64,000 bases of DNA from Chlamydiota bacterium (GTDB lineage: Bacteria > Auribacterota > Tritonobacteria > UBA1439), in NCBI GenBank assembly GCA_012729785.1, contig JAAYCL010000044.1, positions 34,752-98,751 on the forward strand, read 5' to 3'. Under the pieces are notes generated by a model that worked only from the letters and a program-made list of their open reading frames with translations, did no database searches and was not told the DNA's origin. Shown here piece by piece: positions 26,771 through 43,776 of the stretch (its first letter is position 1; each line of letters starts with the position of its first letter). A program made the position numbers and the translations under genes.

Positions 26771-28186
26771 TTAGATCCTTCGCAGGTAGAGGAGGCCCTT
26801 CAGGAGGACGACGATGTCGTTGAGCGATCGGATCCGGCGGATCGAGCGCCAGATGTAGCGGGGGCGGATGTAGAAGCGGCGGTACGCCCGACGGTACATT
26901 CTTCGCGCGTCCGCGGCCGTGAAGCCATCGGTCTCGTAGTGGGGCGTCGCGCCGAGAAAATCGAGCTTCGTGACGTCATCGCCGATGAGCGACCGGCCGT
27001 GTTTCTTCACCCACGTCCAGAGCGCCGTTCCCGGGAGCGGCGTGCTCATGGTGAACTGCGCGTAGGTCGGGTCGAGCCGTATGGCGAAGTCGATGGTTTT
27101 GCGCATCGTCTCGACCGTGTCGAACGGGTGGCCGATCATGAAGAAGCCGATCGTCTCCATCCCCGCCCTCTTCGCCGCGGCGAAGGCCCGTTCGACCTGC
27201 GCCGTGGTGATCTCCTTGCCGATTTTCCTGAGGACCTCGTCGTCCCCGGACTCGATGCCGAAGGCGACCTCGTAGCAGCCCGCCCGCTTCATCATTTTCA
27301 GCAGCTCGTCGTCGATGAGGTCCACGCGCGTCCCGTTCCCGAGACGCCAGGCGAAACGGAGGCCGCTCGCGGACACGCGGTCGCAGAATTCCGCGACCCG
27401 GTTCCGGTCCAGCGTGAAGGCGTCGTCCAGGATCGATATCTCCTCCACCCTGAAGCGCTCCACGAGCTCCCGCACCTCCCCCATGACGTTGTCCATGCTC
27501 CGGTACCGGAGGTTCCTGCCGAAGGGGCGGAAGCAGAACATGCACTTGCCGGGACATCCCCTGCTCGTCACGAGCGTGGCAAAACGCTTCCTCCCGGTGT
27601 GGATCGTCTGATAGCGGTCGAGGGGGAGGAGGTGACGGGCCGGGAACGGGATCGAATCCAGGTCGCGGATGAGCGGCCGGTCGGGGGTGTGCACGACCTC
27701 CCCCTTGTCCCTGAAGGAGATGCCCGGGACATCGCGCCAGCCCGCCGTTCCCCGCCCCAGACGCGCCATCAGATCCAGGATGGTCTCCTCTCCCTCGCCG
27801 CGCACGCATATATCCGCCCCTCCGCGCTCGAGCGCCTCCTCGGGGGCGATCGTGGGGTGCGGGCCTCCGAAGATGAGGAGCGGCGGGCGGGGGAGGGCCT
27901 TCACGCCGTCGGCGAGTTCGCGGGCCGCCGCGAGCATGGAGGTCATCATTGTGGCGCCGACGGCGGCGGGCTGTTTCTCTCGGACGACGGCGAGGATATC
28001 CTTCAGGGACATCCCGAGCCCGTTGGCGTCGAGGAGCTCGAACGGGATGCCGGATCGCTCGAGCACCGCGGCCACGTACGCCAGGCCCAGGGGCGCCTCG
28101 GCGCAGCCGGCGTGGTAGAACGGGATGTTAACGAGGAACAACCCCGGCGTGCCGCCTGCCGCAGCCCCGTGTCCGTTTCGGGTCAT
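26771..28186 (-). CDS. Cobalamin-binding (class B) radical SAM protein
   Basis: Start ATG 28186 (MTRNGHG...). B12-domain-like N-terminus GLAYVAAVLERSGIPFELLD. Radical SAM motif TSRGCPGKCMFC. Confidence 0.8.
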   Translation of the reverse strand: MTRNGHGAAAGGTPGLFLVNIPFYHAGCAEAPLGLAYVAAVLERSGIPFELLDANGLGMSLKDILAVVREKQPAAVGATMMTSMLAAARELADGVKALPRPPLLIFGGPHPTIAPEEALERGGADICVRGEGEETILDLMARLGRGTAGWRDVPGISFRDKGEVVHTPDRPLIRDLDSIPFPARHLLPLDRYQTIHTGRKRFATLVTSRGCPGKCMFCFRPFGRNLRYRSMDNVMGEVRELVERFRVEEISILDDAFTLDRNRVAEFCDRVSASGLRFAWRLGNGTRVDLIDDELLKMMKRAGCYEVAFGIESGDDEVLRKIGKEITTAQVERAFAAAKRAGMETIGFFMIGHPFDTVETMRKTIDFAIRLDPTYAQFTMSTPLPGTALWTWVKKHGRSLIGDDVTKLDFLGATPHYETDGFTAADARRMYRRAYRRFYIRPRYIWRSIRRIRSLNDIVVLLKGLLYLRRI

Positions 28187-28248
28187 GGAGAGTGCCTTCG
28201 CGACGTCGTTGGACAGCCATGGTATCCGCTTCGAACGCAATCCGCAAG

Positions 28249-28276
28249 TGCATTGTCCCGGCTTGCATTGTCCCGG
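28249..28276. repeat. Tandem direct repeat TGCATTGTCCCGG x2 (3-nt spacer) in the 5' region of the minus-strand B12-rSAM gene
   Basis: Read directly: copies at 28249-28261 and 28264-28276. Confidence 0.6.
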
Positions 28277-28305
28277 GTCGACGCATCCCCATCGATGGGA
28301 ACTGC

Positions 28306-29331
28306 TCAATCGTTGCGGCGTTTCCCCGCGAGGATCTTCGAGAACCCCTCGATTTCGCCGACCCCGTAGCCGAGGTGCGTGAGAAGGAGGGCGGCGAAGA
28401 CGAGGGGGATGCGGGCGGGGCGACGCGCCCGGATGGAGGCGAGGCAGGCCGTAACGGCCATCGCGGGGAGGTAGACGAGGGGGAGAAGAAGCGGGCGCCA
28501 GAGGAGCCCCAGCGGCGAGAAGGCGAGGCCGAGGAGGAGGAGGAGGGGGGCGAGGTAGTGGAGGTTCAGCATCGCGGGCTCCCGGACGAGGAGCACCCCG
28601 CGCGCCCTGCCGTAGCGCCGCATGTTGCGCCACCAGGAGAGGGGGGTCGACCGGTACCGGTGATAGACGACCGGGAGGGGGGAATAGAGAAGTTTTCTTC
28701 CCGAGGTGAGGATGCGGTAGGAGAAATCGGCATCCTCCCCCTCGTTTTCTAGGCGGTCGTCGAAAAAGCCGATGCGATCGAAGAGACCCCGCTCGTAGAT
28801 GACGTTCAACGAGGGGAGGTCGTCGACGAATCTCTCCCGAGGGTGGCACATCCCCGTCACCCGGCCGCCGCTCCCGACCCAGGTGTTGAGGGCGAGTTTC
28901 AGCGCTTCCACGAACGGGGGGCTCCCCTCGGGGATGAGGCTGGGGCCGCCGACCGCGGCGACACGCGCGTCCCTCTCCCGCGCCTCGCGGAATACCGCCG
29001 CGAGGGAGGAAAGCCACCGGGGAGCGGCGACGCAGTCGGCGTCGATGAAGGCGACGAATGGGGCGCGGGATTCCCGTACGCCGGTGTTGCGGGCGACGGC
29101 CGTCCCCTTTCTCGGTTCGACGACGACGCGGATGCACGGGTGGCGCAGGGCGCGGGCGCGGGCGATCTCCAGGGTGCCGTCGCTGGAATCCCCGTCCACC
29201 ACGATCACCTCGAAGGAGCCCGAAGAAAACTCCTGTCCCGCGACGGAATCCAGGCACGCGGCGATGTTGTTTCGCTCGTTATAGCAGACGACGACCACGG
29301 AGAGATCGAGCGCGCGGGGCGTGTCGGTCAC
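28306..29331 (-). CDS. GT2-family glycosyltransferase with C-terminal TM segments
   Basis: LSVVVVCYNERNNIAACL...VVDGDSSDGT...FIDADC are the GT-A DxD motifs. Hydrophobic C-terminus. Confidence 0.85.
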   Translation of the reverse strand: MTDTPRALDLSVVVVCYNERNNIAACLDSVAGQEFSSGSFEVIVVDGDSSDGTLEIARARALRHPCIRVVVEPRKGTAVARNTGVRESRAPFVAFIDADCVAAPRWLSSLAAVFREARERDARVAAVGGPSLIPEGSPPFVEALKLALNTWVGSGGRVTGMCHPRERFVDDLPSLNVIYERGLFDRIGFFDDRLENEGEDADFSYRILTSGRKLLYSPLPVVYHRYRSTPLSWWRNMRRYGRARGVLLVREPAMLNLHYLAPLLLLLGLAFSPLGLLWRPLLLPLVYLPAMAVTACLASIRARRPARIPLVFAALLLTHLGYGVGEIEGFSKILAGKRRND

Positions 29332-29350
29332 GGCTGCCCTCCCTGCCCGG

Positions 29351-30802
29351 TCAGCGGCGCCGCCTCAGGCCGCGCGCGAGGTACGCGGCGTAGCGCCGGG
29401 CCGACCGCAGATTCCTTCTCCCCTCCGACGGCCTGAGGGCCGACTGGACGAGCTTACGGGCGAGGTAACGAGGGTTGAAGTGGTAGGAGCGGTACGCCCG
29501 TTCGCAGAACCGCTCCATCTCCTCCATCGAGATGCCGGGGAGCGACAGCGGACTCGCGTGGGAGAGGGAGGGGCTCATCCACTTCGAATAGTCCTCGGTC
29601 AGCAGGTAGCCGTGCGCCTTCGCCCACGCGTACGCCTCGGTCCCCGGGTAGACGATGAGCGGGTAGAACTGGAAGCTGTCGCAGGCCAGCTCCTTCGCGA
29701 AGCGGAGGCTCTCCGCCATCGTCTCCCGCGTCTCGCCGGGGTTTCCGACCATGATGCAGCCGTGGACGAGGATACCCGCCCGGCGCGCGTTTTTCACGAA
29801 GGCGCGGGACTGTTCCAGACGCAGCCCCTTCTTCATCCTGTTCAGGAGCTCCTGGCTCCCGCTCTCGAACCCGACGGTCACCAGCCGGCACCCGGCCTCC
29901 TTCATGGCGGCGAGCGTCTCGTACTCCAGGTCCGCGCGCACGTTCGTGTACCATTTCAGCCGGTTCCTCTGCCCGACGAGGAGCTCGCAGATCCTCCGCG
30001 CCCTCCCGCGATCCACGGTGAACGTGTCGTCCTCGAGGCCGATCTCCCGGGCCTCGGGGAGATTCGCCGCGATGAAGGCGAACTCGGCGGCCACGTTCTC
30101 CGGGCTTCGAGGACGGAACCTCCGCCCGTGAAACGTCTGGGGGTAGACGCAGAAGAAGCAGCGCTGCGGGCAGCCGCGCGCGCTTATGATCTGGACGACC
30201 GGGTAGTCCGCGGCGGCGAAGTAGTAGTCGCGGATATCGAGGTGTTTCCGGTAGGTTTCGCTGACGAACGGGAGCTCGTCGAGATCTTCGATGAGGGGGC
30301 GGGGGGCCGTGCGGAGGCAGATGCCGCCCCGCCGTATGCAGAGGCCGGCCACCCCCGCCGGATCGCCGCCGGCCTTCAGACGGCGCGCGAGGTCGCGGAG
30401 CGTGTAGTCGTATTCCCCGAGCGCGACGGCGTCGACCCGGGGGGCGAGCGCGAGCGTCTCCTCGGGGAGGGCGGTGGGGTGCGTGCCCGTCAGGACGACG
30501 AACGCGCGGGGGAGGGTCTCCTTGAGGGACTCGGCCACCTCCGCGTCGTTGTAGATGCTGGGGGTGCTGGTGTCGCAGACGACGATGTCGGGGGAGAAGT
30601 CCGCGGCCCGCGAGAGAACCTCCCCCCGCGCGAAGCCCCGGGCGGGGGCGTCGAGGAGCAGGCAGTCGAAGCCGTCCTTTTCCAGCACACCGGTCGCCGC
30701 GGCGAGCCAGAACGGGTAGTAGAGCGTCCCACCCTTCGTCACCGCGGGGCTTCGTTGCGACCTGGAGAACCGCGGGTGGAATGGGGGGTTCAGCACCAGC
30801 AC
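29351..30802 (-). CDS. Cobalamin-binding (class B) radical SAM protein
   Basis: GTG 30802 lies 2 nt after the stop of the upstream GT2. N-terminus KVLVLNPPFHP is typical of the B12-binding domain. Radical SAM motif ISARGCPQRCFFC. Confidence 0.8.
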   Translation of the reverse strand: MLVLNPPFHPRFSRSQRSPAVTKGGTLYYPFWLAAATGVLEKDGFDCLLLDAPARGFARGEVLSRAADFSPDIVVCDTSTPSIYNDAEVAESLKETLPRAFVVLTGTHPTALPEETLALAPRVDAVALGEYDYTLRDLARRLKAGGDPAGVAGLCIRRGGICLRTAPRPLIEDLDELPFVSETYRKHLDIRDYYFAAADYPVVQIISARGCPQRCFFCVYPQTFHGRRFRPRSPENVAAEFAFIAANLPEAREIGLEDDTFTVDRGRARRICELLVGQRNRLKWYTNVRADLEYETLAAMKEAGCRLVTVGFESGSQELLNRMKKGLRLEQSRAFVKNARRAGILVHGCIMVGNPGETRETMAESLRFAKELACDSFQFYPLIVYPGTEAYAWAKAHGYLLTEDYSKWMSPSLSHASPLSLPGISMEEMERFCERAYRSYHFNPRYLARKLVQSALRPSEGRRNLRSARRYAAYLARGLRRRR

Positions 30803-30804
30803 CT

Positions 30805-31980
30805 TCAGAGCTGGCCCCTCCGTTTCATGTCGAGCATGCTGAGGAAGAACGAGGAGAAGAAGGTCTGGATGCCGATGATCATCAGGGCCGCCGCAAGCGC
30901 GGCCCTGTTGAGCTCCACGACGGTGATGCTGAAACGGACCTTCACCGCGGTGTGGAAGACATACGCGTCGATGCCGAAGCCGACGAGGAATACGACGCTG
31001 CCGAGCAGCAGGCCTCTCTCCAGACTGAAGCGGCGGTAGAAGCGCGTGATGAACCGTGCGTCGTCCTCGAACTGCGCCTCGTAGGAGTAGGTCTTCGCGT
31101 ACAGGCCGAGCAGGATGATCTGGAAACCCAGGATGGCCAGGACGGTTCCAGCGAGCGAAAAGTGGGTCCCGTAGCCGTGGCCGCCGATCCAGACAAGGCC
31201 GCCGGTGAGCCCGAGGAGCGGGATGAAACCGAGGGCCATGAAGACCGCCCCGGGGACGAAGAACAGGTAGGTGGGGCTGTACATCAGCATGAAGCGCAGG
31301 TGGCGGTAGCCGTCGCTGAAGGTCCTGAGGTGGGGCCTCCCGCTGCGCCCGTCCCGGTGGAGGGTGATCGGTATCTCGGCGATCCGCATCTTGGCCTTGC
31401 ACGCCTTCACGATCATCTCGGAGGCGAACTCCATACCGACGGTTTTGAGGCGGAGCCTGCGGTACGCCTCCTTGGTGAGCGAGCGCATGCCGCAGTGGGC
31501 GTCGGAGACGCGGCCGCCGAAGAAAAGCCGCAGCATCCAGGACAGCACCGGATTACCGAGGTACCGGTGGAGCCAGGGCATCGCCCCCGGTTCGATGGAG
31601 CCCTTGAACCGGGAGCCCATGACCATGTCGAATCCCTGCTGCAACGGGGTGACGAAGCGCCCGACCTCCGACCAGTCGTAGCTGTCGTCGGAGTCGGCCA
31701 TGACGATGTGCCTTCCGCGCGCCTCATCCAGCCCTCGGAGGTAGGCGCTTCCGTACCCCTTGACCGGCTCGCGGACCACGCGGGCTCCGCGCGCGGCGGC
31801 GATCTCCGCGGATCGGTCGGTGGAGCCGTTGTCGACGACGATGACCTCCCAGGGCAGGTTCAGGCGCGTGAGGGCGCGCACCGCCTTCTCCACGCATGTC
31901 CCGATGGTCTCCTCCTCGTTCAGGCACGGCATGACCGCGGAGACCTCAATTTCGCCACGCCTTCCTGCGTCGCTGTTCAA
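30805..31980 (-). CDS. GT2-family glycosyltransferase with C-terminal membrane domain (DPM1/GtrB-like)
   Basis: VSAVMPCLNEEETI...VVDNGSTDRS...MADSDDSYD, followed by a C-terminal domain of 4 TM helices. Confidence 0.85.
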   Translation of the reverse strand: MNSDAGRRGEIEVSAVMPCLNEEETIGTCVEKAVRALTRLNLPWEVIVVDNGSTDRSAEIAAARGARVVREPVKGYGSAYLRGLDEARGRHIVMADSDDSYDWSEVGRFVTPLQQGFDMVMGSRFKGSIEPGAMPWLHRYLGNPVLSWMLRLFFGGRVSDAHCGMRSLTKEAYRRLRLKTVGMEFASEMIVKACKAKMRIAEIPITLHRDGRSGRPHLRTFSDGYRHLRFMLMYSPTYLFFVPGAVFMALGFIPLLGLTGGLVWIGGHGYGTHFSLAGTVLAILGFQIILLGLYAKTYSYEAQFEDDARFITRFYRRFSLERGLLLGSVVFLVGFGIDAYVFHTAVKVRFSITVVELNRAALAAALMIIGIQTFFSSFFLSMLDMKRRGQL

Positions 31981-32138
31981 TGGCGTTCTCGCTTTCTGTG
32001 CGCACGGCGCCGCCCGCGTGCCCGCCGACCCCGTCGCACAAAGATACTACAAACGGCGGCGCGGCGCAATGCGGATAAGGCCATGACGGGGTTCCGGGAA
32101 TGCCCTCTCCACGCCTGTGGCACGCGGTCGCCATATCA

Positions 32139-32164
32139 CGCGGCGTCATGTCGCGCGGCGTCAT
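32139..32164. repeat. Direct repeat CGCGGCGTCAT x2 (4-nt spacer) abutting the -35 box
   Basis: Copies at 32139-32149 and 32154-32164. The second ends in the TTGACA hexamer. Confidence 0.55.
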
Positions 32165-32193
32165 TGACAGGGCGTTCTTGTGTGCGCAATAAT
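32164..32193 (+). promoter_or_regulatory. Sigma70-like promoter: TTGACA -35, 18-nt spacer, AATAAT -10
   Basis: TTGACA 32164-32169; AATAAT 32188-32193. Lies ~57 nt upstream of ATG 32250 (RBS GAGGAG). It is the only perfect -35 hexamer noticed in the intergenic regions. Confidence 0.5.
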
Positions 32194-32249
32194 GCTGTCT
32201 TTGGGCGTGTTCTCCCGGCGCGCATGAGAGGCACGAGGAGTCTCCGTTG

Positions 32250-33494
32250 ATGGGCAGGCGGGCAAGAAGAACGGCGATCTCGTGCGCCTGCGTTCTCCTC
32301 CTCTACTTCGTCTGCGAACTGGTCTCCGTTGCCGGCATGCGGCTCGCCGATCTCAGGCGCGGGTATAGGCTGGAGTTCGGGGTGCCCGTGCTTGATGAGG
32401 AGCGGATGCGGGAGCTCCGGGCGCTGCTCGCGTCCGGGGACGGCGCCCGCGGCATGATCGTGCACGACCCCGACCTGGGATGGAGACTCCGGCCCGGGTA
32501 TTCGGGGGGGGGGCAGCGCACCAACGCCGCCGGCCTCGTGGCGACCCGGGAATACGATCAACGCCCCGCCCCGGGAACGGCGAGGATCGCGGCGTTCGGC
32601 GACTCGTTCACGCAGTGCGTCGTGCCGAACGAGGCGACCTGGGAACAACTGCTCGAGGAATCCTGCCGGGGCATAGAGGTGTTGAATTTCGGCGTCAGCG
32701 CCTACGGCCCCGACCAGGCGTACCTCCGCTACGCGCGCGAGGGGCGGAAGTATCATCCGGGGATCGTGCTCATCGGCTATATGACGGAGAACCTCGCGCG
32801 GCTGGTCAATGTCTTCAGGCCGTACGCGGACCCGATGAATGCCCCCCTCGCGAAGCCCCGGTTCACGCGTGCGGAGGGGCCCCTCGAACTGGTCCCGAAC
32901 CCCCTGGCTGACAGGAATGCCCTCATGGAGCTCCTGTCGTTGAACGAAAACCCCGCGCTCCGGGACCGCCTCGGCCGGCACGATAACTACTACCGGAGGT
33001 ATTATTACCGGCGTCCCCCGCGGCTGGTGCGCTATTCGCCGCTCGCGCGGCTCGCCTTCAGCGTTTTTCTGGTGGGGGACTGGAAGCTGCGGGACCTGAC
33101 CATGACGAACATCCACGCCGCGGACGGCCGCTACAACACCGGGTCGGAGGCGTACCGCCTCCTCGAAGCGCTGCTGCTCCAATGGACGGGGGAGATCGTG
33201 CGCGACGGCGCCGTTCCGGTCGTGCTCGTCTTTCCGCAACGATCCGACATCGAGCGGTGGCGCGGGGGAGAGGGGATGAAGCAGTACGAGCCGCTCCTTG
33301 AGTTTTTGCAGGGGGCGCGGATCGCCTGCATCGATCTTATGGATGCGTTCCCGCCCCGCGAGACGGCCGAGGCGTTCACCGCGGATGGCCACTACAGCGC
33401 GCTCGGCAACCGCCTCGTCGCCGCCCGTGTCGGCGAGGCGCTGGTGCGCCGGGGGCTTGTCGCGGGGCCGTGCCAAGGGATGGGGATGCCGTGA
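32250..33494 (+). CDS. SGNH/GDSL-family hydrolase
   Basis: Block I IAAFGDSFTQC. N-terminal TM anchor. Paralog of the 16189 gene. Confidence 0.8.
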   Translation: MGRRARRTAISCACVLLLYFVCELVSVAGMRLADLRRGYRLEFGVPVLDEERMRELRALLASGDGARGMIVHDPDLGWRLRPGYSGGGQRTNAAGLVATREYDQRPAPGTARIAAFGDSFTQCVVPNEATWEQLLEESCRGIEVLNFGVSAYGPDQAYLRYAREGRKYHPGIVLIGYMTENLARLVNVFRPYADPMNAPLAKPRFTRAEGPLELVPNPLADRNALMELLSLNENPALRDRLGRHDNYYRRYYYRRPPRLVRYSPLARLAFSVFLVGDWKLRDLTMTNIHAADGRYNTGSEAYRLLEALLLQWTGEIVRDGAVPVVLVFPQRSDIERWRGGEGMKQYEPLLEFLQGARIACIDLMDAFPPRETAEAFTADGHYSALGNRLVAARVGEALVRRGLVAGPCQGMGMP

Positions 33495-35173
33495 CGAAGG
33501 CCGGCGCACAACTCACGATGCTCCTCCTCACCGTCGTCGTCGGGGCGGCGATCCTGGCGCCGTATGTGGGGTACCAGGATGTTTTGGACCAGTCGGATCG
33601 CGGGCGGGACCTCTACTGCTTCAAGAAGACGATGGACGGCGCAACGGTCTACAGGGACTACTGGTGGATTTACGGGCCGGCCATGCCGTACTACTACAGC
33701 TTGTTCTACCGGGCGATGGGCGTGAGCGTGCGGAGCGTGCTGGCCGGACAGTGCGTCCTGCTGCTCCTCTGCGGCGTCCTGATCTTCCTGACGGCGGCGC
33801 TTTTCGTTTCGCCGGGCTGCGCCTGTCTCGCCTCGGTCGTCTTCTGGGTGTATTACCCGGATTTTCCCCACACCTACGTCTATACGGGCGCCGTCGCCTG
33901 CATGCTGCTCGCCCTCTACTTCCTTGTCCGTTACATCCGCCGCCCGGGGCTCCCGTCCCTCCTCCTCTGCGCCGCGGCCGCGGCGGTCGCCGGCATGGTC
34001 AAGCTCAATATCGGGGCGGCCCTCTTCTGCGCCTCGCTCGCCGCCGCCTTTGTCGCGGACCTCCTGCGGGAGGGGCTCTGCGGCCTCGGGGGCAGGCTGC
34101 GGCGCTACGCCGCCTCCGCCTCCCTCTTCGGCGGGGGGATTGTCCTCGGCTACCTGCCGTTCACCCGGGGGTTGCCGGGGGTCGTCAGGTCCCAGTCGTT
34201 CCCCTTCTCGAACCCGCAGCGCTCCTCCCTGCCGCCGCTCCTCCCCCGCCTCCGGGGAATCGCGGAGATCGCCGCCGAGCAGTTTTCTCTGGACTGGCGC
34301 TACCCCCTCCTGCTCGCGGTGTGCCTGGCGTGTCTCGCGCGGGGGCTCTGGCTGATCGCGCGGAACAGGCCGATTGCCGCGCCCCGTTCCGAGCTCGGCG
34401 CCGCGATGATCGCCTTTCTGCTCATCGCCCTCTTCTCGATTCACGAATACTTCATGAACATCTTTGCGATTTACTATCAGCTGATCTGGGCCTTCCCCCC
34501 CCTCTACCTCCTCTTCGTCCTCGCCGTGTGGACGGGAACGCGCGGCCTCCCCGCTCTTGCGCGCCGGGCGGTCGCGGCACTGGTCGTTGTCTGCGCGGCG
34601 ACGAGCCTCGCCTCGACCGCGCAAACGATACGGCGCTCCATGGTCCCCGCGCAGCACCTGGGATTCGCGAGGGGCGGGGTGTACCTGAACCCCGCCAACA
34701 ATCCGCCGGAGTGGCTCGCGACCGTCCGGGGCGCCGTGGATTATCTGATGCGCAACGTCGGGAAAGATGAGAAGATAGCCGCGTTTCCCTACGATACCCT
34801 TTACTGCTTCCTGAGTGAGCGCGACAGCGCCATCCGCCAGCAGGAGATTCTGGCGCTGAGCCATCCCACCGAGGAGCAGGAGCGGGAGATCATCGCGTCG
34901 ATGGAGCGGCAGAACGTGAGGTGGGCGGTGCTCTCCAACCTGTATCGCACCACGGAGCCCGGGAAGGGCGCCGGCTTCGGCCTCGTCTGCTGCCGCACGC
35001 TTAGCGGGTATCTCGAGGAGCATTTCGACATCGCGTCGGTTTTCGGGCCGTGGCGCACCGACCCGCCGTGGTGGATCGAGGGGCACGGGGTGGCGATTCT
35101 CCGGAGAAGGGAAATCCCCGGCAGGGAGACGCTCTTCTGGTGGGGGAGCGCAAGGAGGGTGACGGTAAAATGA
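33491..35173 (+). CDS. Polytopic membrane protein with C-terminal soluble domain (unassigned family)
   Basis: GTG 33491 overlaps the upstream stop (GTGA). About 11 TM helices. Alternative ATG at 33518. Confidence 0.6.
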   Translation: MTKAGAQLTMLLLTVVVGAAILAPYVGYQDVLDQSDRGRDLYCFKKTMDGATVYRDYWWIYGPAMPYYYSLFYRAMGVSVRSVLAGQCVLLLLCGVLIFLTAALFVSPGCACLASVVFWVYYPDFPHTYVYTGAVACMLLALYFLVRYIRRPGLPSLLLCAAAAAVAGMVKLNIGAALFCASLAAAFVADLLREGLCGLGGRLRRYAASASLFGGGIVLGYLPFTRGLPGVVRSQSFPFSNPQRSSLPPLLPRLRGIAEIAAEQFSLDWRYPLLLAVCLACLARGLWLIARNRPIAAPRSELGAAMIAFLLIALFSIHEYFMNIFAIYYQLIWAFPPLYLLFVLAVWTGTRGLPALARRAVAALVVVCAATSLASTAQTIRRSMVPAQHLGFARGGVYLNPANNPPEWLATVRGAVDYLMRNVGKDEKIAAFPYDTLYCFLSERDSAIRQQEILALSHPTEEQEREIIASMERQNVRWAVLSNLYRTTEPGKGAGFGLVCCRTLSGYLEEHFDIASVFGPWRTDPPWWIEGHGVAILRRREIPGRETLFWWGSARRVTVK

Positions 35174-36288
35174 AGGTGCTGATACGCCCCGCCCGCTACG
35201 ACGCCATCGGCGGCCCTATCGAGGAGATCCTCGACTCGTTTTCGCTTCGATGGAAGGGGGCGCGGGTCCTCGTCAAGCCGAACGTGCTCGGGCCGTGGAC
35301 CGCGGATGCGGGCGTCACCACGCACCCGTCCGTGGTCGCGGCGCTCGTGCGCGCCCTTGCGGCGCGCGGCGTTGGGAAAATCATGGTGGGGGACAACCCC
35401 GGTCTTCGCGGCTACGCTGAGAACGAGCGCTGCTTCAGGACCTGCGGTCTGATGGAGGCGGCGGGGGGGCAGTACGTCAACCTTGGGAGGAGCCCGGTCA
35501 AGGTGAAATTCAACTCCCGCTATGCCTCCGAGGTCACCGTCTCGAAGGAGGTGCTCGACTGCGATATCCTCGTCTCGGTCCCCAAGTTCAAGACGCACGC
35601 CCTCACCATGCTCACGGGCGCGGTGAAGAACACCTACGGCTACATCGTGGGGGCGGAGAAGGCGCTCCTTCACGCCGCGGCGACCTCCCCCGAGAGGTTC
35701 GGCGAGGTCGTGGCGGATGTCTACGCCGTGCGCCCCCCGGACCTGTCGATCATGGACGCGGTGGTCTGCATGGAGGGGAAGGGGCCGTCGGGCGGGGCGC
35801 TTCGGCAGGCGGGGAAGCTGATCGCCTCGGATAACGCCGTCTGCCTCGACGCCGTGATGTGCTCCATGGCGGGCGTCGCGCCCGAGAAGATCCCCACGCT
35901 CAGGATCGCCCACGCGCGCGGGTTCGGGGAGATCGACCTCTCGAAAATCGAGGTGGATGGCCCTCTCGAACCGATCAGGGATTTCTCGATGCCGGGCACC
36001 TTCACGGCCGGACTCTTCGGATACATCATCCATCGTTTCGTCTTCCCCCGGCTCCGCACGAAGCCGCGGTTCAATATGCGCACATGCACCAGGTGCAAGG
36101 CCTGCTACGAGCTGTGCCCCGTGAAGGCGATCTCCTGGGACGACGGGCCGGTGCTCAAGCGGGAGAAATGCATCTCCTGCTTCTGCTGCATGGAGAGCTG
36201 CCCCTCCAACGCCGTGGAGCTGAGGGGCGTGCTCTACAAGGTCAGGGATGCCCTGACGAAAAGGACCGCCGGCGGCCCCTGCGGGTGA
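35170..36288 (+). CDS. DUF362-domain protein with C-terminal 2x[4Fe-4S] ferredoxin-type motifs
   Basis: ATGA overlap with the upstream gene. DUF362-like core (VLVKPNVLGPW...ILVSVPKFKTHALTMLTGAVKN). The C-terminal motifs are CTRCKACYELCP and CISCFCCMESCP. Confidence 0.75.
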   Translation: MKVLIRPARYDAIGGPIEEILDSFSLRWKGARVLVKPNVLGPWTADAGVTTHPSVVAALVRALAARGVGKIMVGDNPGLRGYAENERCFRTCGLMEAAGGQYVNLGRSPVKVKFNSRYASEVTVSKEVLDCDILVSVPKFKTHALTMLTGAVKNTYGYIVGAEKALLHAAATSPERFGEVVADVYAVRPPDLSIMDAVVCMEGKGPSGGALRQAGKLIASDNAVCLDAVMCSMAGVAPEKIPTLRIAHARGFGEIDLSKIEVDGPLEPIRDFSMPGTFTAGLFGYIIHRFVFPRLRTKPRFNMRTCTRCKACYELCPVKAISWDDGPVLKREKCISCFCCMESCPSNAVELRGVLYKVRDALTKRTAGGPCG

Positions 36289-36377
36289 GCGCATCGGCTG
36301 GGCCCGGTTCACCCTGCGCCACCGGGAGACGCATCAGAAGAGCCGGTGCCCGGGTAGCGCATGGTCCCCCAAACGAA

Positions 36378-37844
36378 ATGAAGATTCTTTTGCTGCAGCC
36401 GAGATTTACCTATTCGCGCTATATGCAGATCGCAGTGGAGATGCCGCTGGGCCTCTGCTCCCTCGCGGCGGTCGCCCGGCAGCGCGGCCACACGGTGGTG
36501 ATTGTCGACTGTCTCGCGGAGGGGGTTGCGAACGCGGTGAGGGAGGGTGACCTCACCACCTACGGCCTCCCGGATGAGGAGATCGAAAGAAGAATCAACG
36601 AGTTCCACCCCGACCTGGTCGGAGTGAGCTGCCTCTTCAGCGCGCAGTACGGGAACGCACGCCGGCTCTGCGAGCTCACGAAACGCGTGGCGCCGCGCGC
36701 CATCACGGTGATGGGCGGGATGCACCCCACGGTCAAGCCCCGCGAGGTTCTGTCCGAGGAGTCGGTGGATTTCATCTTCCAGGGCGAGTCCGACATCACC
36801 TTCTCCGACTTCGCCGACGCCCTGGAGCGCGGAGACGGGTACGGCGACATCGACGGTCTCGGCTACAAGCGGGATGGGGTCCTCGTGATCAACAGGAAGG
36901 AGCACTTCATCGCGGACCTCGACGCCCTCCCGTTCCCCGCCAGGGATCTGCTGAAGGTCGACTGCTACTACCGGGCGGCGCGGGCACACGGCTTTGTCTT
37001 GACGCACAGTAAGAACATGAATCTGATCACCAGCCGCGGCTGCCCGGCGCGGTGCATCTTCTGCACCATCTTCCTCGTATGGGGAAGGCGGTTCAGGGCG
37101 CGGAGCCCCGAGAACGTCCTCGCGGAGCTCGAGCAGATGAAACGGGATTTCGGGGTCCGGCACGTGCAGTTTGAGGACGACAACCTGACATACGACATCG
37201 GCCGCGCAAAGAGGATCTTCAGGGGGATGATCGACCGGCGTCTGGGCCTCGCGTGGAACACCCCCAACGGTGTCGCGCTCTGGTCGCTGGACGAGGAGGC
37301 GCTCGATCTGATGAAACGGGCCGGGTGCTACTACGTCAAGTTTGCCATCGAATCCGGGAACCAGCGGGTGCTCTCCCGGGTGATAAAGAAGCCCCAGGAC
37401 CTTGCGCGCGCCCGGCGACTCATCGAGTATGCGCGCTCCCTGGGGATGATGGTCGGCTCGTTCTTTGTGGTGGGCCTCCCCGGGGAGACGAGGGAGGAGA
37501 TGCAGGATTCGTTCGACTTCCGGTACACGACACGGCTGGACTACACCGTCTACATCGCCGCCAAACCGGAGCACGGGACCGAGCTCCGGCGGCTGTGCGA
37601 AGAAAAGGGGTATCTCCGGAAGCACACCGACCTGGAACTCGAGGGGGGCGAGGGGTTCATCGAGACGCCGGAGTTTACGCCCGAGTGGCTCAGAAACAAG
37701 ATCGCACGGGAAAACAAGCGATACCTGCGCTTCCTCATCACACACCAGCCGGGCACCCTCCTCTCGCTCGGGTGGCTTATCTTCAAGCGGGACCCGCTGA
37801 TCGTCGTGAAACACCTTGCGCACACGCTGGGGTTGACAAGATGA
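36378..37844 (+). CDS. Cobalamin-binding (class B) radical SAM protein
   Basis: MKILLLQPRF... (B12-binding domain), then TSRGCPARCIFC. Confidence 0.85.
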   Translation: MKILLLQPRFTYSRYMQIAVEMPLGLCSLAAVARQRGHTVVIVDCLAEGVANAVREGDLTTYGLPDEEIERRINEFHPDLVGVSCLFSAQYGNARRLCELTKRVAPRAITVMGGMHPTVKPREVLSEESVDFIFQGESDITFSDFADALERGDGYGDIDGLGYKRDGVLVINRKEHFIADLDALPFPARDLLKVDCYYRAARAHGFVLTHSKNMNLITSRGCPARCIFCTIFLVWGRRFRARSPENVLAELEQMKRDFGVRHVQFEDDNLTYDIGRAKRIFRGMIDRRLGLAWNTPNGVALWSLDEEALDLMKRAGCYYVKFAIESGNQRVLSRVIKKPQDLARARRLIEYARSLGMMVGSFFVVGLPGETREEMQDSFDFRYTTRLDYTVYIAAKPEHGTELRRLCEEKGYLRKHTDLELEGGEGFIETPEFTPEWLRNKIARENKRYLRFLITHQPGTLLSLGWLIFKRDPLIVVKHLAHTLGLTR

Positions 37845-37959
37845 CGCCGCACCGTGAGAGAATGAGGCTCCGTCGCGGCTTTTGCCGCGGGTGCCTCCCC
37901 CGGCGCGATCGAGGAGGCACGGCGGTCTGGGCGGCCGTTGCGCCTGGAGGGTGGACTCG

Positions 37960-39081
37960 ATGAACGAGTGTGTCCTGCACCGGCCCGGAGCCGGGGGCGA
38001 GGTGGCCGTCGTCGCCGCGCGCAAGGCGTGCCGTTACCACCGGCCCGGGGAGTCGTATCCGGCCGTTCGGATGACGCCGGACGGGCTCTGTCCATTTGCG
38101 TTCCATCTCCTCTATCCCGACTGCCTTGCCATGCTGAGCAGGGGAAGATACCCGGTGGAGGGGGGGAGGGAGATTTGCCGCCTCCAGTGCCCGTTCGCGG
38201 GCGAGGGGGTCGAGTTCGGCGTGTTCCGGATCCCGCGGAAACGGACCTTTTTCGGGAAACTGGAACTCCTCGCCAGGAAGACCGCGGACCTCTTCACGCC
38301 GGTCGAACTGCTCGAATACGGTATCGCCATCGAGGTGACCAAGGCGGGCGCCGGTTGTCCACATAAGTACCGGGCGGGGGACATGTTCGAGATGAACATC
38401 AAGGGGAAGAAGGAACTGTGTCCCGCGGCATTCTACACGATCTTGCCCTTTTATCCGGCCGCGCCCCATGGGGAGAAGGGGGCGGGCCTCTGCATCTCGT
38501 GCGCCGACTACTGCACGGATATCGTCTTCTCCCTCGGCGGCGGGGATCCCGGATCCTTCTTCGGGGAATGCGATGCGTACGGGGACATCGCGGTGCGGGT
38601 GGAGGGGGCGCGCGGGGGAGGAACGGGGAGCCCGCGGGAAGGAACCGAATATCCCGTGAACGCCCTCATCGACGCGATGCGCATCCCCTGCTTTTCCGCG
38701 CTCGCGGCCGCATTCCCCTATATGCGCACGCTGGAGCGCGGGGGCTCGCTCGGGTTTCTCACCCGCGACAGGGATGCGGCGGGGATCCAGTGCCCGAACC
38801 CGTCGGTTCGCGTGCGGATGTTCGTCCGCCGGGACCGGGCGACAGGAAGCTTTCGGCTGGACGTGCACGGCCGCGACGGCGTCTGCCCGAAAAATCTCCA
38901 ACCGGGCAGGAGCTATCCGCTGCCGCCGCTGGAGGGGGGGGCGCTCCCCCTTCGGCTCCTCGCGACTCTCTATCCGTATATCATGCGTCTGAAAGCGGAT
39001 GCCGCCGGGGCGCCGCGCACGGTGCGCTGTCCGGTCGAAGCCGGCGCGGCGGATGTGCGGGTATTCCGGGGGAGGGGATAG
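37960..39081 (+). CDS. Cys-rich protein composed of four tandem TIGR04076-like repeats
   Basis: Repeated motif pairs: LCPFAFHLLYP...CRLQCPFAGEGVEFGVFRIPR; CPHKYRAGDMFEM...LCPAAFYTILPFY...CISCADYCTDIVFSLG; IPCFSALAAAFPYM...IQCPNPSVRVRMFVRR; LRLLATLYPYIM...VRCPVEAGAADVRVFR. These match my recollection of the TIGR04076 family motif (C.HAF.SLLP...QCPDP...V.F), which I cannot verify here. Confidence 0.6.
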   Translation: MNECVLHRPGAGGEVAVVAARKACRYHRPGESYPAVRMTPDGLCPFAFHLLYPDCLAMLSRGRYPVEGGREICRLQCPFAGEGVEFGVFRIPRKRTFFGKLELLARKTADLFTPVELLEYGIAIEVTKAGAGCPHKYRAGDMFEMNIKGKKELCPAAFYTILPFYPAAPHGEKGAGLCISCADYCTDIVFSLGGGDPGSFFGECDAYGDIAVRVEGARGGGTGSPREGTEYPVNALIDAMRIPCFSALAAAFPYMRTLERGGSLGFLTRDRDAAGIQCPNPSVRVRMFVRRDRATGSFRLDVHGRDGVCPKNLQPGRSYPLPPLEGGALPLRLLATLYPYIMRLKADAAGAPRTVRCPVEAGAADVRVFRGRG

Positions 39082-40143
39082 ATGGCCGTGAAAGGGTCTC
39101 TCATCAGGCACGTTCGCACCTTTGGGGCGATCCTGAGATCGCGCCTGCTGCACAGGCGGATACCGGTGATTGCGAATATCCTGATCACGAATCGGTGCAA
39201 CCTCCGGTGCTTCTACTGCTACCCAGATTCGTTCAACCGCGCCCTTGAGGACATGCCGCTCGCCGACTTCAAGAGGATCATCGACCTTGTGCACGCGAAA
39301 GGCTCCCGCGTGGTCGTCCTGCTGGGCGGGGAGCCGCTGATCAGGAAGGATATCGGGGAGTTCATCGGCTACGTGCGCGCGAAAGGGATGGCGTGCGAGG
39401 TCGTGACGAACGGATTCTTCGTCCCGCAGCGCCTCGACGCCCTGAAGAACGCGGACAGCGTCTGCGTGAGCATCGACGGCGACGAGGAGGCGAACGACAA
39501 GAACCGCGGGAAGGGCAGCTTCCGGAAGGCGATGGAGGCGATCGAGCTGCTCCAGGCGAGCGGGATCCACACAAGGATCAAGGCGGTGATCACGAGGAAC
39601 AACCTCCGCTCCATCGACTTCTTGGCCCGCCTCGCGCGGGAGAGGGGGATGGTGCTGATGGCGATCATCCCGACGACCTATGAAGACAGGGTCTATCCGG
39701 ATGGCGTCGCCGCGCAGTGGTTGAGCCAGGAGGAGTACCGCGCCTTCGTCATAAAGCTGATCGGGCTCAAGAAGGACGGCTACCCGATCTTCCACTCCTA
39801 CCGCGCCCTGCGCTACTGCAGGGACTGGCCCTACCCGTACGACGAGATCGTAACGGGGAAGCGCCTGAAGAACGGCGCGCGGGCTATCCCGTGCACGGCA
39901 TGGGAGTACGGCATATTCATCGACGTGGACGGAAGGTTCTTCATGTCGTGCCTTAAGACGTTCGACATCCAGGGGAGGAAGATTCTGGAAACCGATTTCG
40001 ACGACTGGTGGATATCGCAGCGGCGCTTCGGCTGCACCACCTGCGCCCTGCTGCCGAACATCGAGAAGTCGCTCGTCTACAACATGCATCCGGGGGCGCT
40101 GTGGAACATGGTGCGGATGGCCCTCTGGCGCGGGGGCCGGTGA
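39082..40143 (+). CDS. Radical SAM / SPASM-twitch domain protein
   Basis: Starts 1 nt after the TIGR04076-like gene stop. ITNRCNLRCFYCY is the CxxxCxxC motif. C-terminal Cys IPCTAWEYG...FMSC...FGCTTCALLP. Confidence 0.85.
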   Translation: MAVKGSLIRHVRTFGAILRSRLLHRRIPVIANILITNRCNLRCFYCYPDSFNRALEDMPLADFKRIIDLVHAKGSRVVVLLGGEPLIRKDIGEFIGYVRAKGMACEVVTNGFFVPQRLDALKNADSVCVSIDGDEEANDKNRGKGSFRKAMEAIELLQASGIHTRIKAVITRNNLRSIDFLARLARERGMVLMAIIPTTYEDRVYPDGVAAQWLSQEEYRAFVIKLIGLKKDGYPIFHSYRALRYCRDWPYPYDEIVTGKRLKNGARAIPCTAWEYGIFIDVDGRFFMSCLKTFDIQGRKILETDFDDWWISQRRFGCTTCALLPNIEKSLVYNMHPGALWNMVRMALWRGGR

Positions 40144-40150
40144 TCGCCGC

Positions 40151-42178
40151 GTGGAGGGCATCGTCGCCGTGAAAAGAGCACTCGTCGTCATCGCGCTGGC
40201 TGTTCTCGCCGCGCCGGTGGCCTATAATGTCGCCACGTCGTATGTCGGGGATGAAGATCTCTGGCGCCTCGCGCGCAGTCTGGAGTTGACGCTCAAGGAC
40301 GCCCTCCTGCAGAGCAACTACCATGTCCCTGGCTGGAAGCATTTTCGGCCGACGCAGTACGCCGCGTTTTTCCTGCTCGCCCGCCTCTTCGGGAGGGCCG
40401 CATGGGCGTACCATCTCTCGTTCTTCTCCGTCCATGTCCTCAGCGCGGTCTTCCTCTATCTCCTGACCCTCCGGTTGACGCACAACAGGGTGTGCGCCCT
40501 TGTCGCAGGCACCCTGTTCGCCTTCCATCAGGCCAACACGGAGATCCTGTGCGTGCTCGCATCCTTTCATTACCTGCTGTTGGTTTTTTTCTCCATCCTC
40601 ACCCTGTTCTTTCTCGCGCGGCATCTCGATCGGGGTCGCATGTCGGATCATGCGCTCTCGGTCCTGTGGTGCATCCTCGGGCTCCTCTCCGACACCCCGG
40701 GGGTCATTCTCATGCCGTTCGTGCTCCTGCTGGCGGAGTTGTTCTACCCCGCCAAACTGACCCTGCGGAGAAGGATTTGGCTGTACTCGAGCTACGCGGT
40801 CCCTGTGTGCGCCTTTGTATTCGTCCGCCGGCTGCTGGTACCCGCCCCCCTGGTCGGGGCGAGCCATATCGCCGACGTTTCGCATATCATTGCGAACTGC
40901 CGCATGATCGTCCGCGCCGTCTTCCTGCCGTACGACACCATGTGTCACCCCCCGTATGGGGGCGTCTTCCTGGCGTTCTCCGTTTTAATCGGGTGCGCGT
41001 ATGCAGGCGCCTTCCTTCCGTTCATCCGCCGGGGCGGGCTGCGCAACAAGCTCTTTCTCTTCTCCGCTATCTGTTTCTCTCTCTACGTGCTCAGCGCGGG
41101 CAACTTCTTCGGGCACGAGAGGATGTGCAGTATGGCAATCCCGTTCTACGCGCTCCTTATGGCATCGCTGTTCTGCAACGGCTATGAGGACACTGGACGG
41201 CTGTATAGATTCGCCACGAGTGCTCTCTCTGCAATGCTCATGCTGAACAACTACTCCCTTCTGCTTTTGAGGACACATGACTGGGCCAGGGCGGGACAGA
41301 TAAACAAGAAGGTGATGGAGATCTTCGTCCGCGGCTCGGATGAGGCCGCAGGCAGGAAGATCCATACCGTCGGCTTCCACGAGGTCCGGCTCTGGTTCCT
41401 TCGGGGGAAGCCGATCGTCGGTGATGCGGGCGAGATGTACCGCTGGTGCCATTGGTGGAACGGGAAGGATCGCGCGCTCGATGAGACCTATTTCAGGGAG
41501 TGGAGCGGCTACCCGGAGATTCTCCGTGCGTACGCGTACGGTCGGGGGGTGGTGAGGGACGATGATCTGATCGTCGCGCTTGAAAAGCGGAAGGAATACG
41601 GCGTCTACTCGTTCGCCGTGAGGGCCGACCGCGCCGAGAACGCCCTTGTCGGCCGGCGGAAGCACGTCAAGGCGCCGCGCGAGTCGTCCCCCATCAGGGT
41701 CAACTTCCAATGCTTCAACACCCTCTCCATCCCGATGGAGGGTTTCGAGATCGACGAGGGGAGGAGCTACCAGCCCTGGCGGGGGTATGGATGGGACGGG
41801 GAGTTCATCGGGAGGGACGGCATCTGGGACAAGTGGACCGTGGTGGATATCGACCGCAGGAGCGTTTCGGAGCACCTCAGGGACACGTACGTGTTCACCG
41901 ACAGGGGGAAGGCCACCTGGACTATTGACCTCGACAACGGCCCCTATCGCGTGGATCTCGGATGGTGCGATCCGATCTTCCGGAGAGGCCCGCAACGCGT
42001 GGCGATCGAGGGGAAGGTTGTAGCGAGCGCCGGGCCGCTGGAGAGGGACACCCTGTTCTCCGTCGAGAACGTCCCCGTGGAGGTGCGCGACGGGAACCTG
42101 ACCATGGAACTTATGCCCATGCCGCCGGCATCGAGCGCCATCATCAACTACATCATCATAAGAAAAGGCGCCGAGTAG
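40151..42178 (+). CDS. Membrane protein (about 9 TM helices) with ~300-aa C-terminal beta-rich soluble domain
   Basis: GTG 40151 with a hydrophobic N-terminal half. The C-terminal half (WRGYGWDGEFIGRDGIWDKW...) is Trp/Gly-rich and carbohydrate-binding-like. Confidence 0.65.
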   Translation: MEGIVAVKRALVVIALAVLAAPVAYNVATSYVGDEDLWRLARSLELTLKDALLQSNYHVPGWKHFRPTQYAAFFLLARLFGRAAWAYHLSFFSVHVLSAVFLYLLTLRLTHNRVCALVAGTLFAFHQANTEILCVLASFHYLLLVFFSILTLFFLARHLDRGRMSDHALSVLWCILGLLSDTPGVILMPFVLLLAELFYPAKLTLRRRIWLYSSYAVPVCAFVFVRRLLVPAPLVGASHIADVSHIIANCRMIVRAVFLPYDTMCHPPYGGVFLAFSVLIGCAYAGAFLPFIRRGGLRNKLFLFSAICFSLYVLSAGNFFGHERMCSMAIPFYALLMASLFCNGYEDTGRLYRFATSALSAMLMLNNYSLLLLRTHDWARAGQINKKVMEIFVRGSDEAAGRKIHTVGFHEVRLWFLRGKPIVGDAGEMYRWCHWWNGKDRALDETYFREWSGYPEILRAYAYGRGVVRDDDLIVALEKRKEYGVYSFAVRADRAENALVGRRKHVKAPRESSPIRVNFQCFNTLSIPMEGFEIDEGRSYQPWRGYGWDGEFIGRDGIWDKWTVVDIDRRSVSEHLRDTYVFTDRGKATWTIDLDNGPYRVDLGWCDPIFRRGPQRVAIEGKVVASAGPLERDTLFSVENVPVEVRDGNLTMELMPMPPASSAIINYIIIRKGAE

Positions 42179-42237: not shown

Positions 42238-43776
42238 GTGACCGGACCCATCGCGCTCTTCTCCGTCAGCGACCTTCGAAATATCGCCGAATTCGGAACA
42301 ATATTCATCAAGAACGGTTGGCGGGTGGTGGCCACGCCGGACGCCTACGGCGCCCTCAGGACCGCCGGCATCCCCGCGGTCTGCATCGACGAGTTCACGG
42401 GCACCGTGGAACGGTACTCGTTTCCCCCCACGCTCCATCCGAAGGTGGAGGCGGCGCTGACCGCGCCGGGATCGGGGGAGCGCATAGAACTCGTGTACGA
42501 CATCCCGTATCCCCTCGCGCAGGGGAACGACGTGGGCGGGATGACGCTGCTCGCGCTGGCGGTGAAGGGGGGGCGCATCGCCGTGTCGGCGCACGAGGAT
42601 ATGGCCCGTGTCGCGGCGATGGTGAAGGAGCGCGGCGCCGTCCGCGCCGACGAGCGGGAGCGCCTCGCCGCGAAGGCGCTGCGTCTCATCGAAGGCCACT
42701 ATGGCGCCCTTCTCGACCGAACGGAAATACCTCCTCGCGCCGGCATCCGCGGCGTCGAGCAGACGCGGCTCGCCCACGGTGAGAACCCCTACCAGGAACC
42801 CGCCTCCCTGTTCGCCGCATGCCCCGGCAACGACGACCCGCTCGCCCTGCATCGGTTCGAACGGATTTCCGGAGAGACGCCGTGTTTCACCAACATGGCC
42901 GACCTCGACAGTGTCGTCGCCACCCTGTGCCGTCTCGCCGGGGCCTACCGGCGGCTCGGCGGCGGCCTCCCGCACATCGCCGTGGCGGCCAAGCACGGCA
43001 ACGCCTGCGGCCTGTCGGCGGACCGGACGGACCCGCTCGAGGCCATCGAGGGGGCGCTCTGGGGCGACCCGGCGGCGGTCTGGGGGGGGGAGGTCGTCGT
43101 CACCTTCGAACTGGACGGCGCGCGCGCCGAGCGTCTCCTGCGGAGCGCGCGGAGAGGGGAACTCCACGGGAGCCCCGGCTGGATGCTCGACGTCGTCGCC
43201 GCCCCGGCGTTCTCGGGCGATGCGGTCGAGATTCTCGGGAAGAGGGCGCGGCGGAAGCTGTTTCTGAACCCCGCCCTCGCCGATCCACCCCCCCCGGCGG
43301 ACCGTTGGAGCTATCGGGGCGTCAGGGGCGGCTTCCTCAGGCAGCCGCACCCGTCCTACCTTCTCGACCTCGGCGAGTTGGAGTGGCCCTCGGGGATGTT
43401 CGACGCGGCGTCGCTCGACGACCTTCTCATCGCCTGGGCGGCCGCGTACACCTCGAATCACGGAGGGAACGAGGTGGCGCTCTCCGCAAACCGGGCGCTC
43501 ATCGGCGTCGGCGGAGGCCCCTCCACCGTCGCGGCAACCGAGACCGCCGTCGCGCGGGCGCATGCGCACGGGCACGCCACGGCGGGCGCGGCGTTCGCCG
43601 CCGACGCCTTCTTCCCGTTCACCGATGCGCCGCGGCTCCTCGCCGCGGCGGGGTGCGCCTGCGGCCTCGTCCCCCGGGGCGGGCAAAACGAGGGGGAGGT
43701 CCGCTCCTTCTTCTCCACGCACGGCGTCAGGGTCGGCTATCTCCCGGAGCGGTGCCGGGGATTCTGCAGGCACTAG
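42238..43776 (+). CDS. Divergent PurH-like protein (MGS-like domain + AICAR-transformylase-like domain)
   Basis: N-terminus ALFSVSDLRNIAEFGTIFIKNGWRVVATPDAYGALRTAGIPAVCIDEFTG resembles an MGS domain. C-terminus AFAADAFFPFTDAP...GLVPRGGQNEGEV...FSTHGVRVGYLPERCRGFCRH resembles the PurH C-terminus (SDAFFPF...GG.RD.EV...TG.RHFRH). Confidence 0.6.
   Translation: MTGPIALFSVSDLRNIAEFGTIFIKNGWRVVATPDAYGALRTAGIPAVCIDEFTGTVERYSFPPTLHPKVEAALTAPGSGERIELVYDIPYPLAQGNDVGGMTLLALAVKGGRIAVSAHEDMARVAAMVKERGAVRADERERLAAKALRLIEGHYGALLDRTEIPPRAGIRGVEQTRLAHGENPYQEPASLFAACPGNDDPLALHRFERISGETPCFTNMADLDSVVATLCRLAGAYRRLGGGLPHIAVAAKHGNACGLSADRTDPLEAIEGALWGDPAAVWGGEVVVTFELDGARAERLLRSARRGELHGSPGWMLDVVAAPAFSGDAVEILGKRARRKLFLNPALADPPPPADRWSYRGVRGGFLRQPHPSYLLDLGELEWPSGMFDAASLDDLLIAWAAAYTSNHGGNEVALSANRALIGVGGGPSTVAATETAVARAHAHGHATAGAAFAADAFFPFTDAPRLLAAAGCACGLVPRGGQNEGEVRSFFSTHGVRVGYLPERCRGFCRH

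Follow-up and report, generated by a model that had tools for sequence, protein, structure and literature searches.

A four-unit TIGR04076 repeat protein and its radical SAM neighbour in an uncultivated bacterium of the Chlamydiota / Candidatus Auribacterota

A cysteine-rich protein encoded immediately ahead of a radical S-adenosylmethionine (SAM) enzyme raises two questions: is it built from four copies of one domain, as an original prediction made from the sequence had claimed, and what might such an array do? The gene lies on the plus strand at positions 37960-39081 of a 64,000-nucleotide stretch of DNA, referred to here as the window, from a Chlamydiota / Ca. Auribacterota metagenome-assembled genome (MAG) with 65% GC. 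Its product of 373 residues is identical to NLW95172.1, named by NCBI a 'TIGR04076 family protein' of a Chlamydiota MAG, and a mate in its 90% cluster is annotated in Candidatus Auribacterota. We identified four tandem TIGR04076-type units along this protein and regard their common, ancient origin as almost certain; for the role of the array in its gene cluster we put forward a more tentative proposal below.

Four diverged units in one polypeptide

A hidden Markov model (HMM) of the unit, constructed from 26 units that all come from outside the lineage of the window, detected exactly four domains in the repeat protein, corresponding to unit 1 (U1; residues 13-93, positions 37996-38238, 49.9 bits), unit 2 (U2; residues 119-190, positions 38314-38529, 36.1 bits), unit 3 (U3; residues 209-293, positions 38584-38838, 43.8 bits) and unit 4 (U4; residues 297-368, positions 38848-39063, 22.1 bits), all on the plus strand. 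By comparison, 500 shuffles of the same protein reached a maximum of 4.5 bits. For profile-profile scoring, an alignment of seven homologues (41-78% identical) was cut into four unit slices, and hhalign matched U1-U2 at 92.8% (E 4e-7), U2-U3 at 91% (E 1e-6), U1-U4 at 82% (E 1e-5), U3-U4 at 70.5% and U2-U4 at 36%, leaving U1-U3 as the sole non-significant pair among the six. Five of the six pairs exceeded 60 out of 60 column-shuffled controls. The matches share a single register, comprising a strand, a Cys, 'G-x-x-F/Y', a Cys at the start of the helix, 'A-F-x-x-L-Y-P-Y', 'C-P', and a last strand ending in Arg. These results bear out the predicted four-fold repeat, and the approximate repeat positions given with that prediction fit the unit boundaries found here.

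Structural modelling with AlphaFold2, based on the seven-sequence alignment, is in agreement: the model (predicted local distance difference test, pLDDT, 76.6; predicted template modelling score, pTM, 0.83) repeats a predicted beta-beta-alpha-beta-beta pattern four times, giving the four similar domains for which such a model had been suggested as a check. The same predicted pattern was obtained from a single unit modelled by itself (pLDDT 82). Units 1 and 2 are separated in the model by a predicted helical linker (residues 94-118, positions 38239-38313, plus strand; predicted helices at 97-109 and 115-119), which is also found in two-unit relatives.

The NCBIfam TIGR04076 HMM, whose 91 positions accord with the single-domain length of about 90 residues given in the original prediction, matched the whole repeat protein in three stretches and, at 71.9 bits (E 4.8e-20), exceeded its cut-off of 33, placing the protein within the family by NCBI's curated criterion. 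Scored in isolation, U2 (26 bits, model positions 3-86 of 91) and U3 (29 bits, positions 6-88 of 91) match nearly the whole model. In contrast to the one unit of the TIGR04076 model, the window chain has four; U1 and U4 in isolation gave no match to the NCBIfam model, from which they have diverged too far, and were recognised through profile-profile comparison and the family-specific unit HMM only.

Searches that use single sequences are far less telling, and might suggest that the protein holds only one or two true TIGR04076 domains, the remainder being a chance likeness of Cys/Pro motifs in a high-GC open reading frame (ORF). Self-comparison of the repeat protein by BLASTP returned the diagonal and no off-diagonal match, Smith-Waterman alignment of the single units with one another gave borderline values (z of about 3 for U1-U2, U1-U4 and U3-U4; 0.2-1.9 elsewhere), and the failure of isolated U1 and U4 against the NCBIfam model points the same way. 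Against this stand the four units found by an external HMM at 22-50 bits, the five unit pairs that beat every shuffle, the fourfold secondary-structure pattern of the model, and the conservation of the identical four slots in dozens of distant homologues. We therefore consider chance resemblance refuted by the shuffle controls, the external HMM and the conserved slots, and hold it to be scarcely credible. Identity between units is only ~10-25%, and no DNA-level repeat was detected in the gene beyond one 15-nt chance match, which excludes a recent duplication as the origin of the repeat. The repeat is thus ancient and detectable at the profile level only.

The ORF itself is a genuine gene, as judged from a GGAGGG Shine-Dalgarno sequence 8 nt ahead of the ATG at 37960, a M-x-x-C start common to seven of seven full-length homologues, and a GC content at third codon positions (GC3) of 0.82 in this frame. 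An antisense ORF of 802 residues (37783-40191, minus strand), spanning both the repeat-protein and the radical SAM genes, was rejected as a high-GC artefact given that the sense-frame GC3 is 0.82 and that every homologue is encoded on the sense strand. The protein had been described as Cys/His-rich; the first half of that description holds (16 Cys in 373 residues, 4.3%), while His is not enriched (6 of 373, 1.6%). Since reading of the sequence revealed neither a signal peptide nor a membrane segment, we take the protein to be soluble and cytoplasmic.

Cysteine signature and family architecture

Each unit spans ~80-90 residues around a core of three conserved Cys, located past strand 1, where the helix begins, and in the 'CP' motif of strand 3. 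Across an alignment of 32 units, the only near-invariant columns are these three Cys and the two Pro residues of the 'YP' and 'CP' motifs, and each of the four slots in 44 four-unit proteins has mostly Cys at the three positions. Nine residues of the window protein (C24, C77, C154, C181, D183, C204, C244, C278 and C309) do not vary in a set of 29 proteins sharing 20-68% identity with it. Unit 1 possesses a complete triad (C24/C44/C77) with a near-invariant H27 in a CRYH motif, as does unit 2, the most canonical of the four, with C133/C154/C181 and the invariant D183. Units 3 and 4 are each one signature Cys short: unit 3 keeps C244 and C278, shows Gly at the first signature position and carries a GGSLGFLT insert, with the invariant C204 just upstream of it; unit 4, the most degenerate, keeps C309 and has lost the helix Cys, and its C357 is not conserved in one homologue (P0007). 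An element reading CPHKYRAGDMFEM had been assigned to unit 2 specifically. It is present there, but not there alone: degenerate counterparts of this 'CPxxxxxGDxF' element occur in all four units (C24RYHRPGESY, C133PHKYRAGDMF, GSPREGTEY and C309PKNLQPGRSY).

Judged from these conserved positions, multivalent metal binding by the array is plausible, with H27 (unit 1) and D183 (unit 2), both conserved, as candidate fourth ligands. Should the triads be metal sites, the window protein would carry two intact and two degenerate ones. Because only units 1 and 2 retain complete triads, units 3 and 4 are probably structural in the lineage of the window.

The four-unit arrangement, which the original prediction had taken to be an unusual fusion, turned out to be the usual architecture of this subfamily. 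When 1.84 billion representative proteins were searched with a profile, 327 clusters were found at E<=1e-3, of which 209 reached E<=1e-10. Among the best 155 of these clusters, four units were detected in 46 (median 369 residues), three in 55 (median 359 residues) and two in 52 (median 199 residues); those with three probably possess a fourth that escaped detection, and approximately 100 of the 155 are arrays of roughly 330-400 residues. The window protein aligns colinearly, as U1-linker-U2-U3-U4, with 28 other members at 20-68% identity, and relatives are already named 'uncharacterized repeat protein (TIGR04076 family)' by JGI/IMG. The protein is thus a catalogued member of the TIGR04076 family whose repeat architecture is the norm of its subfamily. 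Other searches recovered less: profile scans of genome contigs and of metagenome contigs returned close relatives only, at two loci each, and a protein homologue search with a 29-sequence profile returned eight proteins.

The array consists of two halves, U1-linker-U2 and U3-U4, and a split form of it was identified at two loci as pairs of adjoining two-unit genes (L015, 8001-8618 and 8641-9135; L016, 5514-6146 and 6147-6746). These pairs preserve the order of the window protein (U1-U2, then a U3-like and a fourth unit) along with a radical SAM orthologue and an SDR (short-chain dehydrogenase/reductase) partner, and differ in being two polypeptides of ~165-210 residues each, of which the window protein is the fused version. 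In L016, the first unit of the downstream product (199 residues) is closest to U3. The downstream genes of both pairs have no Pfam annotation and were recognised through unit HMMs only. As the gene next to that of a two-unit protein at these loci encodes a second two-unit protein, the four units form a constant set, whether in one chain or in two.

Pfam holds no family for the repeat protein or for any of the 32 units, sequence searches of the PDB with the family and unit profiles gave chance-level matches only (an SH2/PH adapter and CD44; E 0.35-1.3), Foldseek detected no PDB neighbour of the family, and the literature on TIGR04076 consists of passing mentions that assign no function.

Radical SAM and oxidoreductase partners and a possible role

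The stop codon of the repeat-protein gene (39079-39081) abuts the ATG (39082) of a gene for a radical SAM enzyme of 353 residues (39082-40143, plus strand), which carries a CX3CX2C motif and conserved C271, C318 and C321. Its orthologues conserve the CX3CX2C motif together with C128, C271, C318 and C321, a pattern that we take to resemble a single 'twitch' auxiliary cluster. We sampled the genomic context of the family at ten independent loci, comprising the window and nine others, some of whose repeat proteins are only 20-40% identical to that of the window, and scored them with the window proteins; an orthologue of the 353-residue enzyme (at least 180 bits) is directly adjacent to the repeat-protein gene in nine of the ten. 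Pfam identifies only Radical_SAM and Fer4_12 on this enzyme, which falls below the cut-off of every curated NCBIfam family. Its closest solved relative is BlsE (7vob, E 4e-13), which acts on a nucleoside sugar.

A second kind of partner is an oxidoreductase, of which two alternatives were found. In the window, a conserved neighbour encoded at 35170-36288 on the plus strand is a DUF362 protein that ends in a 2x[4Fe-4S] ferredoxin domain. Five of the ten loci have such a DUF362-ferredoxin protein and the remaining five an SDR, with both together in none, so that the DUF362-ferredoxin and the classical SDR (L009, L012, L013, L015 and L016) are seemingly exclusive, interchangeable partners. Gene fusions confirm both links: one fusion protein (P0039) joins three units to DUF362 and a 2x[4Fe-4S] ferredoxin, and an SDR is fused to the unit array in seven clusters. 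For DUF362, the literature offers nothing functional beyond a Pfam clan shared with the N-terminal domain of LarA (PMC11770544). On the strength of this shared clan, we speculate that the DUF362 and SDR partners could both be C-OH oxidoreductases.

For the repeat protein, we propose that it serves this radical SAM and oxidoreductase module as an accessory subunit that binds metal, an interpretation for which we would claim close to an even chance at best. In such an arrangement the Cys triads, each completed by a fourth ligand such as H27 (unit 1) or D183 (unit 2), would bind Fe-S clusters or possibly zinc, and the array would dock on the radical SAM enzyme, either relaying electrons to it from the dedicated oxidoreductase (the DUF362-ferredoxin protein) or holding the enzymes together, perhaps as a zinc-stabilised scaffold for the enzymes or the substrate. 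Several observations weigh against this proposal. The units resemble no known metal-binding motif, Pfam family or solved structure; the window protein has only two complete triads out of four; one locus (L009) has no close radical SAM orthologue inside its 9.7-kb contig; an SDR is a hydride-transfer enzyme and not a one-electron donor; and the loci number only ten, all of them from metagenomes.

The two types of fusion pull in different directions. Those with ferredoxin argue for an electron relay, while those with SDR argue for a scaffold, since hydride transfer fits a scaffold or substrate handling better than a relay of electrons. It is accordingly conceivable, though we consider it doubtful, that the array is redox-inert: the triads would hold structural zinc or disulfides, and the units would organise the SDR or DUF362 proteins and the radical SAM enzymes, or bind a sugar or nucleotide substrate, without carrying electrons. 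A redox-inert array of this kind would be compatible with the seven SDR-fused clusters, as an SDR needs no one-electron partner, with the retention of units 3 and 4 despite the loss of their triads, which suggests that the fold outweighs the metal, and with the pTM of 0.83, which points to four units packed compactly in fixed relative positions. It sits less comfortably with the fusion and adjacency to a DUF362 protein that bears two [4Fe-4S] ferredoxin motifs, and with a three-Cys signature that is kept over hundreds of clusters and exceeds the needs of most structural sites.

The position of the gene also invites a different explanation, namely that the repeat protein is the substrate of the adjacent radical SAM enzyme, either a multi-core precursor, as had been suggested originally, or a protein-derived cofactor, with its Cys cross-linked or modified and peptides possibly released later. 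The gene directly precedes, and is translationally coupled to, that of a radical SAM enzyme bearing a putative auxiliary cluster; the weak NCBIfam similarities of this enzyme include the peptide maturases StsB, MftC, SkfB and PqqE; and the clusters encode several radical SAM and B12-radical SAM enzymes. Most of the evidence runs counter to such a role. The units are only 10-25% identical and have no repeat at the DNA level, the protein is predicted to be folded, and relatives are fused to enzymes (SDR, DUF362-ferredoxin). Pfam found no RRE/PqqD-like recognition domain at the N-terminus of the 353-residue enzyme, as expected from a radical SAM motif that begins at residue 39, and the gene tables of the window and related loci contain no gene of the PqqD type. 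The same tables, within +/-10 kb, list no protease or transporter/exporter family, several neighbours having no assigned family; those with an assignment mostly encode glycan synthesis, radical SAM enzymes, SDRs or methyltransferases, and some loci also have purine-related genes. The clusters are of a glycan type (GT2, epimerases, NTP-transferase, GHMP kinase), and BlsE, the nearest solved radical SAM relative, acts on a nucleoside sugar. We therefore consider it improbable that the protein is a substrate, and the multi-core precursor unlikely.

Comparison with known systems helps to place the proposed metal-binding accessory subunit. By analogy, not homology, the array resembles polyferredoxins and other multi-domain Fe-S electron-relay proteins: both consist of small Cys-bearing domains in tandem, and the genes of both lie next to those of oxidoreductases and ferredoxin modules, or are fused with them, in uncultivated bacteria from metagenomes. 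In contrast to polyferredoxins, the window units lack the CX2CX2CX3CP motif, contain three and not four Cys each, and have no Fer4 match in Pfam, and any cluster binding by them is putative. A second analogy, of context, is with sugar tailoring: AprD4/AprD3 is a radical SAM and SDR pair of this type, the partner radical SAM enzyme is nearest to BlsE, an SDR or the alternative oxidoreductase is always in the module, and the clusters are glycan clusters. Similarity of the AprD4 and BlsE type of radical SAM enzyme to the window enzyme is low, and we know of no TIGR04076-type protein in the AprD4/AprD3 and BlsE systems.

A bolder possibility, which we rate as unlikely in its full form, is that the array is the signature subunit of a new three-component system, consisting of a twitch-type radical SAM enzyme, a four-unit Cys-triad protein and an interchangeable DUF362-ferredoxin or SDR. 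The task of this system would be the tailoring of sugars or glycolipids, in clusters of uncultivated bacteria that are rich in B12-radical SAM enzymes. The array would then represent a new Fe-S or metal-binding fold with no relative in the PDB and would serve as a platform for the hand-over of electrons or substrate. Whichever role applies, we see the value of these findings chiefly in the context: a family with no Pfam entry, solved structure or Foldseek neighbour in the PDB is tightly linked, at times by fusion, to one radical SAM orthologue group and two alternative oxidoreductases. This provides a candidate accessory, possibly Fe-S, subunit for radical SAM enzymology, makes the recurring combination of a radical SAM enzyme with the repeat protein and one or other oxidoreductase a worthwhile lead by itself, and flags a recurrent type of glycan-tailoring cluster in the PVC group and other uncultivated bacteria.

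Wider gene neighbourhood

The order of genes in the window is DUF362-ferredoxin, B12-radical SAM, repeat protein, 353-residue radical SAM, membrane protein and AICAR-transformylase-like protein (AICAR, 5-aminoimidazole-4-carboxamide ribonucleotide), set within a wider glycan cluster that comprises GT2, two more B12-radical SAM enzymes, epimerases, an NTP-transferase and a GHMP kinase. Directly upstream of the repeat-protein gene, the B12-binding radical SAM enzyme (36378-37844, plus strand) is a neighbour that varies between loci. It is one of three B12-binding radical SAM genes that lie within 10 kb upstream of the repeat-protein gene (~27960-37844), interleaved with GT2. A comparable richness was observed in L012, L014 and L015, related loci having up to four B12-radical SAM genes and one to three other radical SAM genes, some of them SPASM-type. 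Upstream of the DUF362 gene, two conserved genes on the plus strand (32250-33494, 414 residues; 33491-35173, 560 residues) have no assigned family and are also found in L004.

Downstream of the 353-residue enzyme, a multi-pass membrane protein of 675 residues (40151-42178, plus strand) has no assigned family and shows only a sub-threshold match to PMT_2 (GT-C-like). It is followed by a divergent AICAR-transformylase-like protein of 512 residues (42238-43776, plus strand), which adjoins the module in five loci, the further copies being located at L004 12215-13771, L006 5943-7487, L009 8723-9700 and L013 9228-10802. Only the transformylase part matches (residues 98-497), with the inosine monophosphate (IMP)-cyclohydrolase/MGS part missing, and a housekeeping PurH assignment was rejected on its score of 155 bits against a cut-off of 402. 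Other purine-related genes were observed in L014 (4361-7591) and L015 (11016-13461), which carry a PNP_UDP_1 nucleosidase, a phosphoribosyltransferase, and an adenine-deaminase-like or NicX gene. 5'-Deoxyadenosine and S-adenosylhomocysteine (SAH) are products of many radical SAM enzymes, and these nucleosidase, phosphoribosyltransferase and deaminase genes may serve to salvage 5'-deoxyadenosine, SAH or adenine from the radical SAM enzymes.

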